A stretch of DNA of 32,000 nt from Nitratidesulfovibrio vulgaris str. Hildenborough. Its GTDB lineage: Bacteria; Desulfobacterota; Desulfovibrionia; Desulfovibrionales; Desulfovibrionaceae. The stretch spans positions 660,001-692,000 of the forward strand of contig NC_002937.3 of NCBI RefSeq assembly GCF_000195755.1. Direction: 5' to 3'. Under the pieces are notes generated by a model. The model saw nothing but the letters and a program-made list of their open reading frames with translations. It was not told where the DNA came from and ran no database searches. Both the position numbers and the translations under genes were made by a program. Positions 5,246-26,024 of this stretch are shown here, one piece after another (positions within the stretch are counted from its first letter, which is position 1; every line of letters starts with the position of its first letter).

Positions 5246-5343
5246 GGCGCGTGCATCGTCAGATGTTCAGTTGAGGCGGAGATGGCACGGGCTTGACGCC
5301 CCCGCTTCGTGGTTTCATCGTTTTTTTCTTCGCAGGTGGCTTC

Positions 5344-7086
5344 ATGCAGCCGGTTCCGTATATCCCCCCCATGTTCATAACGCTCTCCGAGCGTTTCGGC
5401 CTGCTTCTGGCGGGTGGTTTCGCCATCATGACCCTCGCCCCGCTGGACAAACTCGGGCCGGGGCGCACACGTTCGTGGCGGGCCACGGCGTTGCTGGTGG
5501 TGCTGTTCTCGCTGTTCACCATCCTTGGCACCTACAACGGCAACATCGTGTTCCAGTCGTTCGCCAACCTGCGCGCCATGGGGGCGGTGACGGCGGGGCT
5601 TTTCGGCGGTCCGATGGTGGGCGCGCTGACCGGGCTCATCGCCGGAGGGCATCGCTACTTCATCGACGTGGGCGGGTTCAGTGCCGTGCCGTGCGGGCTC
5701 GCAACCTTTCTGGAGGGACTTGCCGCAGGGCTCTTCGCGTGGCGTTTTCCCTCCCGCAGCCTCGACTGGGGCACTGCCATGACCTTCGCCGCCGTGGGTG
5801 AGGCTGTGCACATGTGCCTTGTTCTCGGGCTGGCACGCCCCTATGCTCAAGCGGTCGACCTCGTGGAGGTCATCGGGCTGCCCATGATATTGCTCAATGG
5901 CGTGGGGGCGGCCATCTTCGTGCAGGCGTTGCGCATGCAGATGCACTTCCGGGACCTGCGCGACTCGTCGCAGGCGCGGCAGATACTCTCCATCGCCAAC
6001 CGCACGCTCCCGCACCTGCGCGCGGGCTTGAGCGCCGCCTCCGCACGGGCCACAGCCGAGATCATCCTCGACGAGACACGGGTGGCTGCCGTGGCTCTCA
6101 CCAGCAACGACATGGTGATGGCGCACGTGGGTGCGGCCTCCGACCACCACAGGGCCGGGCATTCCGTGTGCACGCAGGCGACACGCCGGGTGGCCACGGA
6201 TGGCATTCCGCTCTTCGTGACGGGGCATGACGAAATAGGCTGCCAGCTTGAGGCATGCCCGCTGTGCAGTGCCATCATCGTGCCCCTGCGCAAGGGCGAT
6301 ACCATCCTCGGCTGTCTCAAACTCTACGGAACCAAGGACAGACCGCTCGACCAGACGCTGTTCGAACTGGCCAAGGGACTTGCCGACCTGTTCGCCACGC
6401 AGATCGAACTCGAAGACATCGGTATCAAGAACCAGTTGCTCGCCCGGGCGGAGATCCGCCGGTTACAGGCGCAGATCAACCCGCACTTTCTCTTCAATTC
6501 GCTGAACACGGTGGCCTCGTTCTGCCGGACGGCACCGGGACAGGCTCGCGAGCTCATTCTCGACCTTGCCCGCTACATGCGACGCAACCTCGATACCAGC
6601 CGTGAAGCCATCCATCTTGCCGAAGAGGTGGAGCAGATTCGCGCCTACCTCGTCATCGAGAAGGCCCGTTTCGGAGAGCGCATCCGCGCCGTCATCGACA
6701 TCGACCCCGAGACGGAACACTGCCTCGTTCCGCCCCTGCTCATTCAGCCGCTGGTGGAGAACAGTGTGCGTCACGGCATCCTCGGCAACGAGGAGGGGGG
6801 CGTTGTGCGCCTTGCCACGAGCATGGAAGACGGCCACGTGGTCGTGGTTGTCGAGGATGACGGCGCAGGTATGCCCGAGTCCACGCGGCAGGGTATCCTC
6901 AACGGTACGCCTGTCACGGCCCATGGCGAAGGCATCGGTGCGAGCAACTGCAACCAGCGTCTCGTGCAGTTGTACGGGCCCGCCTACGCCCTCTCCATCG
7001 ACAGCGCCCCCGGCATGGGAACGCGCATCACCTTCCGCGTTCCCGCCTCGACCGACGCCGAGGTGTTCGCCTCGGCAGCTGCCTGA
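5344..7086 (+). CDS. lytS: LytS/BtsS-type sensor histidine kinase (5TM-LYT, GAF, His_kinase, HATPase)
   Basis: The N-terminal membrane domain with ANLRAMGAVTAGLFGGPMVGALTGLIAGGHRY aligns with E. coli BtsS/YehU as I remember it. It has the QINPHFLFNSLN H-box of the LytS family and an ATPase domain. ATG 5344 is preceded by AGGTGG; the listed TTG 5293 is less likely. Confidence 0.9.
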   Translation: MQPVPYIPPMFITLSERFGLLLAGGFAIMTLAPLDKLGPGRTRSWRATALLVVLFSLFTILGTYNGNIVFQSFANLRAMGAVTAGLFGGPMVGALTGLIAGGHRYFIDVGGFSAVPCGLATFLEGLAAGLFAWRFPSRSLDWGTAMTFAAVGEAVHMCLVLGLARPYAQAVDLVEVIGLPMILLNGVGAAIFVQALRMQMHFRDLRDSSQARQILSIANRTLPHLRAGLSAASARATAEIILDETRVAAVALTSNDMVMAHVGAASDHHRAGHSVCTQATRRVATDGIPLFVTGHDEIGCQLEACPLCSAIIVPLRKGDTILGCLKLYGTKDRPLDQTLFELAKGLADLFATQIELEDIGIKNQLLARAEIRRLQAQINPHFLFNSLNTVASFCRTAPGQARELILDLARYMRRNLDTSREAIHLAEEVEQIRAYLVIEKARFGERIRAVIDIDPETEHCLVPPLLIQPLVENSVRHGILGNEEGGVVRLATSMEDGHVVVVVEDDGAGMPESTRQGILNGTPVTAHGEGIGASNCNQRLVQLYGPAYALSIDSAPGMGTRITFRVPASTDAEVFASAAA

Positions 7087-7289: not shown

Positions 7290-8711
7290 ATGCCATCAAT
7301 GATGTATTTCTTCTTGAGCGTCGCTGCGCTCATCGGCGGGTACATGGTCTACAGCCGTGTCGTCGAACGCATGTTCGGCGTCGACAACTGCAAGGCCACA
7401 CCAGCCTGCACCATGGCAGACGGCGTCGACTATGTGAAACTGCCTCCCAGCAAGATCTTTCTCATCCAGTTGCTGAACATCGCAGGCCTAGGCCCGGTGT
7501 TCGGCCCCATTCTCGGTGCGTTGTACGGGCCATGGGCGCTGGTCTGGATCGTACTCGGCTCCATCTTCGCGGGGGGCGTGCACGACTACTTCTCGGGGAT
7601 GCTGTCGGTGCGCTACGAGGGCAAGTCCGTGCCCGACATCGTGGGCTACAACCTCGGCAACGGCTTCAAGCAGTTCATGCGCTTCTTCTCGGTCGTGCTT
7701 CTGCTGCTGGTGGGCGTGGTCTTCGTCACCGGCCCCGCCAAGCTGCTCGCCAACCTGACCGACATGACGCTGATGACATGGGTCATCATCATCTTCGCCT
7801 ACTACTTCCTCGCCACGGTTCTGCCCATCGACCAGATCATCGGCCGTATCTACCCGCTCTTTGCGGTCATCCTCGTCATCATGGCCGTGGGTCTCACTGG
7901 GGCGATGATCGTGAAGGGCTACGAGTTCTATCCCTCTGCCCATTTCGTGAACCAGCATCCCACGGGGCTGCCCCTGTGGCCGCTGATGTTCATCACCATC
8001 GCCTGCGGCGCCATCTCGGGCTTCCACGCCACGCAGTCGCCCATGATGGCGCGCTGCGTGCCTGACGAGAACTGCGGTCGTCCCATCTTCTACGGTTCGA
8101 TGATCGCCGAAGGCGTCATCGCCCTCATCTGGGCGACGCTGGGCATGAGCTTCTACCCCACCCCCGAGGCGCTCAACGCCGCCATCGCCGCCGGTGGCCC
8201 CGGCAAGGTCGTCAATGACGTGTCCATGACGCTCATGGGCCCGGTGGGCGGCATCCTCGCCATCCTCGGCGTGGTCGTGTTGCCTGTCACCTCCGGCGAC
8301 ACGGCGTTCCGCTCGGCCCGCCTGACCATCGCCGACGTGCTGAACTTCTCGCAGAAGGGCAACGGTGCCCGTCTGATGATCGCACTGCCACTGTTCGTCA
8401 TCGGTGCGGTGCTGTCGCAGGTGAACTTCGACATCATCTGGCGCTACTTCGGCTGGGCCAACCAGACGCTGGCGACCATCGTACTGTGGGCGTCTGCGGC
8501 CTACCTCGTGCGTCGCGGCATGCTCCACTGGATTGCCAGCGTGCCCGCCACGTTCATGACGTGCGTGTGCGTGACGTACATCTGCTACGCCAAGATCGGC
8601 CTGAACATCCCGCTGGACATCTCCACGTGGATAGGCATCGCCGCCGCGGTGGGTTCGTTGGGCCTCTTCCTCGTGAAGCGTCCGGCGTTCGCGGCGAATC
8701 CCGTCGCCTAG
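7290..8711 (+). CDS. cstA: CstA-family transporter, copy 1 (carbon starvation protein A / putative pyruvate-peptide transporter)
   Basis: 473 aa polytopic membrane protein. Typical CstA N-terminal block FGPILGALYGPWALVWIVLGSIFAGGVHDY and ITIACGAISGFHATQSPMMAR. GAGGAGGG RBS 5 nt upstream. Confidence 0.9.
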   Translation: MPSMMYFFLSVAALIGGYMVYSRVVERMFGVDNCKATPACTMADGVDYVKLPPSKIFLIQLLNIAGLGPVFGPILGALYGPWALVWIVLGSIFAGGVHDYFSGMLSVRYEGKSVPDIVGYNLGNGFKQFMRFFSVVLLLLVGVVFVTGPAKLLANLTDMTLMTWVIIIFAYYFLATVLPIDQIIGRIYPLFAVILVIMAVGLTGAMIVKGYEFYPSAHFVNQHPTGLPLWPLMFITIACGAISGFHATQSPMMARCVPDENCGRPIFYGSMIAEGVIALIWATLGMSFYPTPEALNAAIAAGGPGKVVNDVSMTLMGPVGGILAILGVVVLPVTSGDTAFRSARLTIADVLNFSQKGNGARLMIALPLFVIGAVLSQVNFDIIWRYFGWANQTLATIVLWASAAYLVRRGMLHWIASVPATFMTCVCVTYICYAKIGLNIPLDISTWIGIAAAVGSLGLFLVKRPAFAANPVA

Positions 8712-8924: not shown

Positions 8925-9037
8925 ATCAGGGCCCTTGCGGGGTGTCACTGTGATGTTTTTTTCATTAAACAATATTTAATGAACGGGTGTCATGCGTGCA
9001 TTCTTTACCATTACGCATGGTTATGAAGGAGGGATTC

Positions 9038-10459
9038 ATGCCGTCAATGATGTATTTTTTTCTGAGCGTGGCAGCGCTCATCGGCGGGTACATGGTCTAC
9101 AGCCGTGTCGTCGAGCGTCTGTTCGGCGTAGACAACTGCAAGGCGACCCCGGCTTGCACCATGGCCGACGGGGTGGACTATGTGAAACTGCCGCCCAGCA
9201 AGGTGTTCCTCATCCAGTTGCTGAACATCGCGGGCCTCGGCCCGGTGTTCGGCCCCATCCTCGGCGCCCTGTACGGCCCGTGGGCTCTGGTGTGGATCGT
9301 GCTCGGCTCCATCTTCGCGGGGGGTGTGCACGACTATTTTTCGGGGATGCTGTCGGTACGCTACGAGGGCAAGTCCGTGCCCGACATCGTAGGCTACAAC
9401 CTCGGCAACGGCTTCAAGCAGTTCATGCGCTTCTTCTCGGTGCTGCTGCTTCTGCTGGTGGGTGTGGTCTTCGTCACCGGCCCCGCCAAGCTGCTTGCCA
9501 GCATGACCGACCTCAACCTGCTCACGTGGGTCGTCATCATCTTCGCCTACTACTTCCTCGCCACCGTTCTGCCCGTGGACAAGATCATCGGCCGTATCTA
9601 TCCGCTCTTCGCCATCATCCTCGTGGTCATGGCCGTGGGTCTCACCGGTGCGATGATCGTGAAGGGCTACGAGTTCTACCCCGCGGCCCATTTCGTGAAC
9701 CAGCACCCCACGGGTCTGCCCCTGTGGCCGCTGATGTTCATCACCATCGCCTGCGGCGCCATCTCGGGCTTCCACGCCACGCAGTCGCCCATGATGGCGC
9801 GCTGCGTGCCTGACGAGAACTGCGGTCGTCCCATCTTCTACGGTTCGATGATCGCCGAAGGCGTCATCGCCCTCATCTGGGCGACGCTGGGCATGAGCTT
9901 CTACCCCACCCCCGAGGCGCTCAACGCCGCCATCGCCGCCGGTGGCCCCGGCAAGGTCGTCAATGACGTGGCCATGACGCTCATGGGCCCGGTGGGCGGC
10001 GTCCTCGCCATCCTCGGCGTGGTCGTGCTGCCTGTCACTTCCGGCGACACGGCCTTCCGTTCGGCCCGCCTGACCATCGCCGACGTGCTGAACTTCTCGC
10101 AGAAGGGCAACGGTGCCCGCCTGATGATCGCACTGCCGCTGTTCGTCATCGGTGCGGTGCTGTCGCAGGTGAACTTCGACATCATCTGGCGCTACTTCGG
10201 CTGGGCCAACCAGACGCTGGCGACCATCGTGCTGTGGGCGTCTGCGGCCTACCTCGTGCGTCGCGGCATGTTCCACTGGATAGCCAGCGTGCCCGCCACG
10301 TTCATGACGTGCGTGTGCGTGACGTACATCTGCTACGCCAAGATCGGTCTGAACATCCCGCTGGACATCTCCACGTGGATAGGCATCGCCGCCGCGGTGG
10401 GTTCGCTGGGCCTCTTCCTCGTGAAGCGTCCGGTGTTCGCGGCGAATCCCGTAGCCTAG
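9038..10459 (+). CDS. cstA: CstA-family transporter, copy 2
   Basis: 473 aa starting at MPSMMYFF, preceded by GAAGGAGGG. By my hand alignment there are 18 aa differences from copy 1. The listed start at 8987 adds 17 aa absent from copy 1 and lacks an RBS. Confidence 0.9.
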   Translation: MPSMMYFFLSVAALIGGYMVYSRVVERLFGVDNCKATPACTMADGVDYVKLPPSKVFLIQLLNIAGLGPVFGPILGALYGPWALVWIVLGSIFAGGVHDYFSGMLSVRYEGKSVPDIVGYNLGNGFKQFMRFFSVLLLLLVGVVFVTGPAKLLASMTDLNLLTWVVIIFAYYFLATVLPVDKIIGRIYPLFAIILVVMAVGLTGAMIVKGYEFYPAAHFVNQHPTGLPLWPLMFITIACGAISGFHATQSPMMARCVPDENCGRPIFYGSMIAEGVIALIWATLGMSFYPTPEALNAAIAAGGPGKVVNDVAMTLMGPVGGVLAILGVVVLPVTSGDTAFRSARLTIADVLNFSQKGNGARLMIALPLFVIGAVLSQVNFDIIWRYFGWANQTLATIVLWASAAYLVRRGMFHWIASVPATFMTCVCVTYICYAKIGLNIPLDISTWIGIAAAVGSLGLFLVKRPVFAANPVA

Positions 10460-14209: not shown

Positions 14210-15133
14210 ATGTCCCTCGCCCTTCAGTATTTCAAGGCTTTGTCGGATGAGACGCGTCTGCGCCTCATCCATGTGCTCAACCGTCATGAACTGTCGGTGA
14301 ACGAGTTGGTCTCCATTCTTGAGATGGGGCAGTCGCGCGTTTCACGCCATCTGAAGATTCTCACGGGTGCCGGTTTGCTGACCTCGCGTCGCGACGGACT
14401 CTGGGTCTTCTATTCCGCCGCCGCCGAGGGCGACGGGCGCGCCTTTCTCGACGCTGTGACGCCGTTCGTGACCACCGACATGGTGTTGCAGGCAGACCTC
14501 GACATGGCCCAGAAGATCATCGAGGAGCGCGCCCTCAAGACAAGACAGTTCTTCAATGCCATCGCCGAAGACTGGGACGAACTCAACCGCGAGGTTCTCG
14601 GGGGGTTCGACCTTGCCGGGGCAGTGGCCGAGGCCATGCCGCAGTGCGAGACGGCGGTCGACCTCGGCTGCGGGACGGGCTCGGTCATCGAGCGCATGTT
14701 GCAGCGGTCGCAGCAGGTCATCGGGGTGGACGGTTCGCCCCGGATGCTCGAACTGGCGCGTCGGCGTTTCGTCGAAGGCGCAGAGCGTGTATCATTGCGT
14801 ATCGGAGAACTCGATCACCTGCCCCTGCGCGACGGTGAAGCCGATTTCGCCAGCATCAACATGGTGTTGCACCATCTTTCGGACCCGGGAGTGGCCCTTG
14901 GCGAGATTCGCCGGGTGCTGCGCCTCGGAGGCCAACTCATGGTCACGGATTTCGACAGGCACGACAACGAGCGTATGCGGAGCGACTATGGCGACCGCTG
15001 GCTTGGCTTCGAAGGCGTCCAGCTTGAAGGATTGCTCCGCGAAGCCGGGTTCACCGTGCGCGAATGCCGCAGGCAGGGGGTGGCCAAGGGCCTTGCCCTG
15101 CATCTGATGCTTGCCGAGAAGACACAACAGTAA
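14210..15133 (+). CDS. sahR: ArsR-type HTH fused to a SAM-methyltransferase-fold domain (SahR-like SAH-responsive regulator)
   Basis: N-terminal ArsR wHTH ([44 protein letters not shown]) and a C-terminal class I MTase fold with motif [10 protein letters not shown]. It sits immediately upstream of ahcY (25-nt gap), the arrangement I recall for SahR. Confidence 0.75.
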
Positions 15134-24203: not shown

Positions 24204-24227
24204 GAAAATGAAACGTGCAGGAACAGG

Positions 24228-24243
24228 AGCAGGAAACGGGCCA
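24228..24243 (-). promoter_or_regulatory. Candidate sigma-54 (-24/-12) promoter for the small-protein genes
   Basis: The minus strand reads TGGCCCG-TTTC-CTGCT, against the consensus TGGCACG-N4-TTGCW. GG (24242-24241) and GC (24230-24229) have the exact 10-nt spacing. It lies about 25-45 nt upstream of the two possible start codons and downstream of a sigma-54 activator gene. Confidence 0.55.
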
Positions 24244-24296
24244 GAGAGATATTTATCTGAAATGTATCAACTTTGATCTTGAGCTTGGGATTTTAG

Positions 24297-24311
24297 AGAA
24301 CTTGGAGTTCT
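24297..24311. promoter_or_regulatory. AGAAC-N5-GTTCT palindrome (proximal copy), candidate activator binding site
   Basis: AGAACTTGGAGTTCT. Its centre is about 60 bp upstream of the -24 element. Confidence 0.45.
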
Positions 24312-24422
24312 GTTTTTTGCGAGGTGCCTTGTCGGCGTCTGGGGGGCAGCTTGTCGATGCAGGATTCTAATCGACTTGTATTGAGCATAACAAGCCATAT
24401 TATATTGCTATTTTATCGAGTA

Positions 24423-24466
24423 AGAACTGAAGGTTCTTTTTTGTCTAGAGAAGAACTGTATGTTCT
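24423..24466. promoter_or_regulatory. Two further AGAAC-N5-GTTCT palindromes (distal pair), candidate activator binding sites
   Basis: AGAACTGAAGGTTCT (24423-24437) and AGAACTGTATGTTCT (24452-24466), centres 29 bp apart. The arms extend to AAGAAC/GTTCTT and GAAGAAC/GTTCTTC. They start 4 nt after the activator gene stop, and no U tract follows them on the minus strand. Confidence 0.45.
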
Positions 24467-24469
24467 TCT

Positions 24470-25909
24470 TTACTTCTTCAACCTGCCGCTACCGGGCTTG
24501 AAATCCTCTTTTTTCAGGCTGTGTCGGGTCATGAGCTTGTGTATCTGCCGGGTGGTGACCCCGGCGATGGCTGCTGCGCCTTTGATACTGCCCCCGCTGG
24601 TGGCGAGGGCGCGTTCCAGATACTCGCGTTCGAAGCTGTCCAGCGCATGACGGCGTGCGGCTTCAAGGGGCAGCGATATGTCAAGGGCGCGGTTGCGCAC
24701 TGCATGGGGCAGTCCCCTGAATTCTGCGGGAAAGGCTTCGGGCGACAGCACTTCTCCCCCTTCGAGGATGCAGGCGCGTTCGATGATGTTCTCAAGCTCA
24801 CGCACGTTGCCGGGCCAGTCGTAGCGCATGAAGGCGTCGATGACATCGGGGTGGATGGCCCGAATGTCACGTGAACGTTGCGGGTTGCAGCGCCTCACGA
24901 ACGCCTCTGCCAGCTGGAGGATGTCCTCTTTGCGTTCACGCAGCGGCGGGATGTCGATGGGAAAGACGTTCAGCCGGTAGTACAGGTCGCGCCTGAAGCG
25001 CCCCTGCGCACACAGGGTCGACAGGTCTTCGTTGGTGGCTGCCACGACGCGCACATCGGGCCGGATGACGGTCTCGCCGCCCACACGCTGGAAACATCTG
25101 TCCTGCAACACATTGAGGAGTTTGATTTGTACGGACGGGCCGATGGTGCCTATCTCGTCGAGGAAGATGGTCCCGCCTTCGGCGATCTCGAAACGCCCCG
25201 GCTTCTTGCGGATGGCGCCCGTGAAGGCACCTTTCTCGTGGCCGAAGAGTTCGCTCTCCACCAGCGCCTCCGGAATGGCCCCGCAGTGTACGCTGATGAA
25301 ACGTTTGCCGTGCCTGTTGCTGTGGCTGTGGATGAGGCGTGCGATGAGGCTCTTGCCCGTGCCGGTCTCGCCGGTGAGCAGCACGGTGCTGCGTGTGGCC
25401 GCCACGAGGCGTATCTTGTCATAGACCTCACGCATCCGGGGGCTGCGGGTGTCGAGTACGATGCCCTCGTCACCTCCGGAGCGGCCCTGTATCAGCCGGT
25501 CGCGCAGGTAGTCGAGTTCGGAGCGCACCAGCGCCGATTCGTGCAGCTTCTGGGTTACCAGCCGTACCTCTTCAGGGTGCAACGGGTAGGTGAGGTAGTT
25601 GCCTGCCCCGGCCCGCACGGCATCGACTGCCTGCCGGATGGCGTCGGCGCGGGCCAGCACGATGAGGTCGACGGAGGGATGCTGCTGTCTGAAGCCGTGG
25701 ACGGCCTGACGTATGGTCTCATAGTCCGTCGTGGTGCCGCCGCACAGGATGTCCATGTCCACAAGGGCGATGTCATGGGCGCGCGCGGCAAGGCGCGACT
25801 TCATCCCGGCGGTGGAACGACTCAGTTCGAGGTCGATGTCGGGAGTGAAGCAGCGTGGCAGGACGGCGAGGGCCGCAGGGTCCATGGTGGCAGCGAGCAC
25901 GTAGCGCAT
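24470..25909 (-). CDS. Sigma-54-dependent transcriptional activator (bEBP) with a degenerate receiver-like N-terminal domain
   Basis: 479 aa. AAA+ sigma-54 interaction domain (GETGTGKSLIARLIH, ESELFGHEKGAFTGA, RVVAATNEDL, FRRDLYYRLNVF) and a C-terminal Fis-type HTH (AAAIAGVTTRQIHKLMTRH). The N-terminal ~120 aa resemble a receiver but lack the DD pair and the conserved Lys. No kinase gene is adjacent. Confidence 0.9.
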   Translation of the reverse strand: MRYVLAATMDPAALAVLPRCFTPDIDLELSRSTAGMKSRLAARAHDIALVDMDILCGGTTTDYETIRQAVHGFRQQHPSVDLIVLARADAIRQAVDAVRAGAGNYLTYPLHPEEVRLVTQKLHESALVRSELDYLRDRLIQGRSGGDEGIVLDTRSPRMREVYDKIRLVAATRSTVLLTGETGTGKSLIARLIHSHSNRHGKRFISVHCGAIPEALVESELFGHEKGAFTGAIRKKPGRFEIAEGGTIFLDEIGTIGPSVQIKLLNVLQDRCFQRVGGETVIRPDVRVVAATNEDLSTLCAQGRFRRDLYYRLNVFPIDIPPLRERKEDILQLAEAFVRRCNPQRSRDIRAIHPDVIDAFMRYDWPGNVRELENIIERACILEGGEVLSPEAFPAEFRGLPHAVRNRALDISLPLEAARRHALDSFEREYLERALATSGGSIKGAAAIAGVTTRQIHKLMTRHSLKKEDFKPGSGRLKK

Positions 25910-26024
25910 GATGCGTTCCTATCCTGTGGTGTCTTCTCACACAAGGGGTTGCCATCCTTGCACTCGTCGGCAAGGCGGGGTAGGGGGGAATCAGGCGACA
26001 CACTGTAACGCAGGAGGCATGACA

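Follow-up and report, generated by a model that had tools for sequence, protein, structure and literature searches.

The spacer between the gene of the sigma-54 enhancer-binding protein DVU0619 and the small gene DVU0617 is predicted, with a probability of about 0.85, to hold an enhancer and a promoter for the DVU0617-DVU0616 operon, which would be driven by DVU0619 itself. The candidate control region consists of three copies of one palindrome and a single sigma-54 promoter. The window, that is, the whole stretch of 32 kb that was analysed, is the DVU0612-DVU0625 region of D. vulgaris Hildenborough. This identity is fixed by the published entries for DVU0619/DVU0617 and for DVU0621/nrfH, which were found in the window at their published offsets.

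The promoter, the three sites and the pairing of regulator and target were already published in 2015 as a computational prediction, and for this reason they carry little weight as a discovery. Three elements described below seem to be absent from the 2015 paper: an IHF-like element in the spacer, the degenerate receiver of the activator, and the OB-fold-like character of the targets. Further refinements are modest, and include a wider phylogenetic range, a fixed geometry of 29, ~126 and ~70 bp, and a second promoter in an orthologous locus from another lineage (L024). The coordinates of the features are collected in Table 1.

Table 1. Predicted control elements, their genes and the surrounding features; positions are those of the window unless locus L024 is named.
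Feature	Position	Strand	Remarks
Activator DVU0619, 479 aa, sigma-54 enhancer-binding protein	24470..25909	minus	degenerate receiver, AAA+ GAFTGA, Fis-type HTH
Activator site 1 (predicted)	24451..24467	minus	AAGAACATACAGTTCTT, begins 3 nt past stop codon TAA
Activator site 2 (predicted)	24422..24438	minus	AAGAACCTTCAGTTCTT, 29 bp after site 1
Activator site 3, proximal (predicted)	24296..24312	minus	CAGAACTCCAAGTTCTC, 126 bp after site 2
IHF-like element	24250..24262	minus	TTTCAGATAAATA, 7/9 to WATCAR-N4-TTR
Sigma-54 promoter (predicted)	24228..24243	minus	-24 GG at 24242/24241, -12 GC at 24230/24229
First target gene DVU0617, 96 aa	23895..24185	minus	small cytoplasmic protein, OB-fold-like model
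Second target gene DVU0616, 131 aa	23510..23905	minus	signal peptide and DUF5818 (Pfam 2.8e-06), overlaps the end of DVU0617
Third small gene, 93 aa	23049..23330	minus	DVU0617 paralogue
Response regulator DVU0621, 465 aa	26695-28092	minus	canonical NtrC type
Hybrid histidine kinase	28231-30729	minus	
Mla-type ABC transporter		minus	same neighbourhood
RidA gene and nrfH		plus	
Layout regions in L024	1890-2500 and 3910-4135 (L024)		one copy downstream of the activator
Second copy in L024	2132-2147 (L024)	minus	promoter TGGCACGAGTAATGCT; sites at 2201, 2303, 2333

Predicted promoter and palindromic sites

The control region lies between the stop codon of the 479-aa activator gene and a small minus-strand gene that starts at ATG 24185 or 24203. 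The first of these starts is backed by the published offsets, by the 96-aa gene call and by an AGGGA sequence 5 nt upstream. Read along the minus strand, the order of the elements is TAA-AG-AAGAACATACAGTTCTT ... AAGAACCTTCAGTTCTT ... CAGAACTCCAAGTTCTC ... TCTGGCCCGTTTCCTGCTC.

The promoter had been proposed in an earlier sequence-only reading of the window as a minus-strand element with exact GG-N10-GC spacing, and this holds for TGGCCCGTTTCCTGCT. The element agrees with the consensus TGGCAC-N5-TTGCW at 10 of the 12 specified positions, and the two departures are TGGCcC and cTGCT. Such a position of the promoter predicts a transcription start at about 24216-24218. The simplified pattern TGGC-N8-TGCW has 8 matches in the window against 3.7 expected, the seven others being at 2450, 2937, 10218, 17002, 23996, 26967 and 30955. 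Six of those seven fall by their coordinates within long open reading frames (for 2450 this comes from the mechanical ORF list only), which leaves 24243..24228 and 30955 as the only matches outside them; the latter is intergenic and upstream of nrfH. A scan for sigma-70 promoters returned one weak match, at 24393..24364, which is the chance level (1 found, 1.0 expected).

The palindrome AGAAC-N5-GTTCT had been noticed three times upstream of this promoter. The pattern AGAACNNNNNGTTCT indeed matches exactly three times in 32 kb, at 24297, 24423 and 24452, whereas shuffled sequence gives an expectation of 0.01 and three copies were reached in none of 100 shuffles. The claim that the palindrome occurs nowhere else in the window also stands, as allowing two mismatches brings up no extra copy near another promoter. 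Relative to the predicted start, the centres of sites 1, 2 and 3 lie at about -242, -213 and -87. The distances given earlier (about 60 bp for the proximal site and about 190-220 bp for the distal pair) agree with those measured from the GG, which are 62 bp for the centre of site 3, and 188 and 217 bp for the distal centres. In the window, the dyad sites fall within the range of 80-250 bp ahead of a sigma-54 promoter and adjoin the gene of an activator with an AAA+ domain, a GAFTGA motif and a helix-turn-helix, which is the arrangement of an upstream activating sequence.

Kazakov et al. (2015; BMC Genomics 16:919, PMC4641369) list DVU0619 as the regulator and DVU0617 as the target in their Additional files 4 and 6. 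The sites given there are AAGAACATACAGTTCTT at -282, AAGAACCTTCAGTTCTT at -253 and CAGAACTCCAAGTTCTC at -127, and the promoter TCTGGCCCGTTTCCTGCTC is placed at -60 from the DVU0617 start (PMC4641369). The three 17-mers and the 19-mer promoter of the window are identical to the published ones, and all four offsets are exact when counted from ATG 24185. The published DVU0619 regulon is therefore the same object, with identical sequences, offsets and regulator-target pairing, and it is the position relative to the published sites that identifies the 479-aa activator as DVU0619. The motif in that work was drawn from 3 genomes, and is a comparative-genomic prediction from co-localisation, made without DAP-chip data (PMC4641369). 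According to Rajeev et al. [quoted passage not shown] A literature search for DVU0615-DVU0619 found the 2015 paper as the only one naming these genes. In comparison with the available parts of that paper, the present analysis adds 11 further loci, the second promoter of L024, the geometry, the IHF-like element and the degenerate receiver; no spacing analysis appears in those parts (PMC4641369).

Several observations concern the surroundings of the control region. The tag DVU0618 is missing from the locus-tag numbering, and the spacer 24204-24469 has short open reading frames at 24267-24398 (minus) and 24215-24370 (plus). These are probably not real genes, since no gene is called in this spacer in any of 11 orthologous loci. 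On the other side of the activator gene, the gap to the divergent RidA gene DVU0620 (25910-26024) coincides with a low-ranked DAP-chip peak, with a score of 1.9 and an FDR of 0.013, in Supplementary file 1 of Rajeev et al. (2011). Farther away, two tandem paralogues of the CstA family of carbon starvation transporters (7290-8711 and 8987-10459, plus strand) sit downstream of a LytS-type histidine kinase (5293-7086).

Conservation of the layout and the A+T-rich spacer

The comparison covered 11 newly fetched loci with activator orthologues of 52-78% identity, which makes 12 loci with the window (52-100%). Partial matches of 36-50% (L003-L009) were treated as non-orthologous and left out. All 11 fetched loci have a spacer of ~260-500 bp downstream of the activator gene, and in 9 of them there comes next a gene for a protein of 80-106 aa and then one for a secreted protein of 109-156 aa. 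The exceptions are L001, which has the secreted gene only, and L019, where the contig stops within the second gene. The wider gene neighbourhood varies among the fetched loci, and the layout accompanies the activator gene also in loci without the second activator and the kinase.

The distances between the elements are nearly constant. Sites 1 and 2 are 28-31 bp apart in 12/12 loci, the pair being at the stop codon of the activator gene. Sites 2 and 3 are separated by 106-126 bp in all 12 (123-126 bp in 8), and the start of site 3 is 68-74 bp from the TGG of the promoter, with one locus at 79 bp. The TGG and TGCT of the promoter are invariant in the 12 loci, 30-370 bp ahead of the small gene. 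The core GAA-N7-TTC is present in 36/36 sites, with the consensus RGAAC-N5-GTTCY, and matches with at least 7/8 core bases have a density of 8.7 per kb within the spacers, compared with 0.57 per kb over the remaining 75 kb of the loci. Comparative sites were taken as the best match inside position windows, so the method itself produces part of the core conservation, but it does not account for the invariance of GAA/TTC or for the constant distances. Helical phasing between sites 2 and 3 was considered as well: the distances of 106, 113, 116 and 123-126 bp give a resultant length of 0.77 at 10-10.5 bp. No such phasing is claimed: the 123-126 class is common to most loci through shared descent, and the distance of 113 bp does not fit the phase.

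The layout is not confined to one promoter. In L024, whose activator is 52% identical and has a recognisable receiver, it is present twice. The second copy lies on the other strand, ahead of a gene for an unrelated 88-aa Cys-rich protein, with spacings of 30, 102 and 70 bp. The three sites, the IHF-like element and the sigma-54 promoter are found in both L024 copies. At L025, a non-syntenic locus with an activator of 53% identity, no sites were found. Together with the base-for-base published prediction, the 11 fetched orthologous loci support the earlier interpretation of the spacer as an upstream activating sequence and a sigma-54 promoter controlled by the adjoining activator, and of two further loci one (L024) bears out the same interpretation at a second promoter.

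The sequence-only reading had offered an alternative for the distal palindromes, namely that they are 3′ stem-loops of the activator mRNA, acting as a terminator or stabiliser rather than as protein sites. The position fits such a role, as the palindromes begin 3 nt past the stop codon and each may form a hairpin of 6-8 bp; in L001 the distal pair is one long inverted repeat. The predicted fold of the distal pair is nevertheless weak (-14.3 kcal/mol, z = -1.8), and 11 of 200 shuffles fold at least as well. A terminator scan returned nothing at the distal pair, whose stems are A+U-rich, and the earlier remark that no U tract follows was confirmed. A hairpin would conserve pairing and not the specific GAA and TTC bases, and these are identical in 36/36 sites, including site 3, which is distant from the end of the mRNA; in L024 the sites also stand on the opposite strand at the second promoter. 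On this evidence the stem-loop explanation fails and is very improbable.

A different suggestion leaves the distal pair as protein sites and gives it an additional job, in which DVU0619 bound across its own stop codon modulates or blocks read-through into the target operon. Site 1 abuts or overlaps the stop codon of the activator gene in 9/12 loci, and no terminator was found between the transcription units of activator and targets. The suggestion comes from position alone, and in L001, L002 and L018 the stop codon is followed by the pair only after 34-123 bp, which means that the overlap is not required. Such a role is unlikely, and it is compatible with the enhancer function proposed here.

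The spacer between site 3 and the promoter was compared separately. Its length is 52-54 bp and its A+T content 60-79% in every locus, against 33-56% locus-wide. In the window, where the spacer is 69% A+T, the IHF-like element lies 7-19 bp upstream of the TGG. The consensus form WATCAR-N4-TTR is the one used for the orp promoters of D. vulgaris. On the gene strand, the 13-mer from 19 to 7 bp before the T of the TGG has a mean score of 6.5/9 over the 12 loci, compared with a background of 3.5 +/- 0.6 over 86 other combinations of offset and strand, and 9/12 loci score at least 7/9 at this offset. The strict E. coli IHF consensus WATCAANNNNTTR has no match within 1 mismatch in the spacer, its sole match in the window being at 14230, and with 2 mismatches the count over all spacers (18 against 13 expected) gives no overall enrichment, so that the informative comparison is the one at the fixed offset.

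The idea of a bend between the sites and the promoter had first been attached to two small dyads, AGATA-TT-TATCT and ATCAA-CT-TTGAT. Neither is conserved as a dyad in the orthologous loci, and this part of the idea is given up. What remains of it is the IHF-like element at a fixed position, TTTCAGATAAATA in the window, which the AGATA-TT-TATCT dyad overlaps. Judging from this conserved position, IHF involvement at the DVU0617 promoter is a reasonable proposal.

The activator and its predicted small target genes

DVU0619 has an intact AAA+ core, GAFTGA motif and helix-turn-helix, and is matched in Pfam by Sigma54_activat (1.6e-67), AAA_lid_14 and HTH_8. Its receiver is different. Residues 1-140 score 16.3 bits in Pfam against a cut-off of 30.2, and the Pfam records of the closest orthologues list no receiver. 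An alignment against the canonical regulator next to it shows that the phospho-acceptor Asp (D51) is retained in the family and that the N-terminal acidic pair is missing; all orthologues have Ala/Val in place of Thr/Ser and Tyr/His in place of Lys. Three of the five residues of the phosphotransfer chemistry are absent, and DVU0619 falls outside the two-component response regulators with a phosphorylatable receiver. Kazakov et al. class it among the two-component response regulators (PMC4641369), and the supplement of Rajeev et al. (2011) terms it truncated in Galperin's census. No kinase was found among the called genes within ~2.5 kb on each side of the activator in six loci (L018-L023). The loss of the acidic pair, the Thr/Ser and the Lys suggests that DVU0619 is probably not controlled by ordinary phosphotransfer.

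The assignment of the palindromes to DVU0619 by co-localisation is indirect, and they could belong to another regulator, either the neighbouring DVU0621 or a repressor. For DVU0621, Kazakov et al. place one site, GTCATCTTTTTCTGTC, at -322, another, GTCATCTTTTTCTGAC, at -302, and the promoter of nrfH at -196 (PMC4641369), and in the window these are found at 30750, 30770 and 30876, with the ATG of nrfH at 31072. DVU0621 at nrfHA resembles the system described here, as it too is an NtrC-type activator encoded nearby, and its tandem sites precede a sigma-54 promoter. It differs by a canonical receiver with an adjoining hybrid kinase, by the support of DAP-chip, and by a non-palindromic-looking motif with 20-bp spacing. 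This motif, GTCAT-N6-CTGAC, which is found in the window ahead of nrfH, is unlike the palindromes. The palindromes accompany the DVU0619 orthologues into loci devoid of DVU0621 and its kinase, and in L024 they flank the orthologue on both sides. In addition, the DVU0619 orthologues have a conserved recognition-helix region, TTRQ(L/I)(H/N)KL, and DVU0621 differs there. Ownership of the sites by another regulator is thus improbable, and DVU0619 is retained as their predicted ligand.

The nrfH promoter and the published labels give some side observations. The sigma-54 promoter of nrfH (30876-30894, plus strand) has TTGT, not TTGC, at -12, and a second exact GG-N10-GC match, TGGCTGCTATGCTGCT, lies at 30955-30970 (plus) between this promoter and the nrfH start. 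In Additional file 2 of Kazakov et al. the helix-turn-helix of the 479-aa activator beside DVU0617 is labelled DVU0621, and that of the 465-aa regulator adjoining the kinase is labelled DVU0653. The labels in this file seem to be shifted by one row.

The first target, DVU0617, has no family match in Pfam or NCBIfam, and PDB searches with its sequence returned nothing significant. It appears to evolve fast, and a word-indexed search for its homologues found 3 relatives only. An AlphaFold (AF2) model, for which four sequences were aligned, reached moderate confidence (pLDDT 68), and is ordered as three strands, a helix and three strands. The best PDB matches of the model are all OB-folds (Stn1/Ten1, RPA, SSB, PriB and YgiW), and they are weak, with E of at least 0.012 and TM of 0.5-0.57. 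The model of DVU0617 is accordingly described as OB-fold-like. A common ancestry of the DVU0617 and DUF5818 families was considered and set aside, as the profile comparison gave only 44% probability over 32 columns.

The third small gene is related to the first. The families of the two align end to end, and BLASTP gives an E of 0.001. Its 180-bp upstream spacer has neither the palindrome motif nor an exact GG-N10-GC, which suggests that the third gene is probably outside the regulated operon.

Proposed mechanism, related systems and meaning

The following order of events is proposed. RNA polymerase with sigma-54 would form a closed complex on TGGCCC-N5-CTGCT at 24243..24228. Dimers of DVU0619 would bind the three RGAAC-N5-GTTCY palindromes by the C-terminal Fis-type helix-turn-helix, at about -242 and -213, 29 bp apart and behind the activator's own stop codon, and at about -87. 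The bound dimers would then assemble into the ATPase ring. The A+T-rich spacer, with the IHF-like element at about -39, would bend and allow the ring to contact sigma-54. Finally, ATP hydrolysis would open the promoter, and transcription would proceed from near 24217. Within this scheme we infer the binding of DVU0619, the three-dimer ring, the bending by IHF, the start site and the dependence on RpoN.

A well-known relative of such an arrangement is found in enteric bacteria, where NtrC acts at glnAp2. A pair of dyad sites separated by roughly three helical turns serves there as a platform for the oligomerisation of dimers, and further NtrC sites lie nearer to the promoter. NtrC is activated by the phosphorylation of a canonical receiver. 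In the DVU0619 family, in contrast, the receiver is without the acidic pair, the Thr/Ser and the Lys, and both the motif and the distances differ. The third DVU0619 site is conserved as well as the distal pair, which is another difference from glnAp2.

A closer example comes from D. vulgaris itself. At the orp2 promoter, the activator site is at -88 and the sigma-54 element at -11, with an IHF site that is functional between them, at -43 (PMC3897727), and the functional IHF sites of the orp promoters score 67-78% to the consensus (PMC3897727). The system of OrpR (DVU2106) and IHF at orp2 (Fievet et al. 2011, 2014; PMC3897727) likewise combines a palindromic site at about -88, IHF at about -43 and sigma-54, and the counterparts at the DVU0617 promoter are the proximal site, centred near -87, and the IHF-like element, near -39. 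The two systems differ in several respects. OrpR recognises GGGCGYRTTTTGCGCCC, also a palindrome, and has an N-terminal domain for redox sensing, and the DVU0617 promoter has an additional distal pair of sites. For orp, the IHF dependence and the binding of the activator are shown experimentally, whereas the DVU0617 promoter is known from sequence alone.

A broader, speculative view is that the DVU0619 family forms a self-contained switch independent of phosphorylation. In this scenario, which is doubtful at present, three rigidly placed dimer sites, a pair at the stop codon and a third some 70 bp ahead of the -24 element, would feed the six subunits of the ring, with the IHF-like element providing the bend, and the pseudo-receiver would be under a control other than a kinase, possibly that of the small OB-fold-like proteins of the operon. 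The whole could then act as a portable module, a term suggested by the presence of the layout at two promoters in L024.

DVU0619 is the one response-regulator-type activator of D. vulgaris that is known by prediction alone, and as such it offers a clean test case. Its targets are small proteins spread across the sulfate reducers and their relatives, and the rigid three-site layout, together with the degenerate receiver, leads to specific and testable hypotheses.
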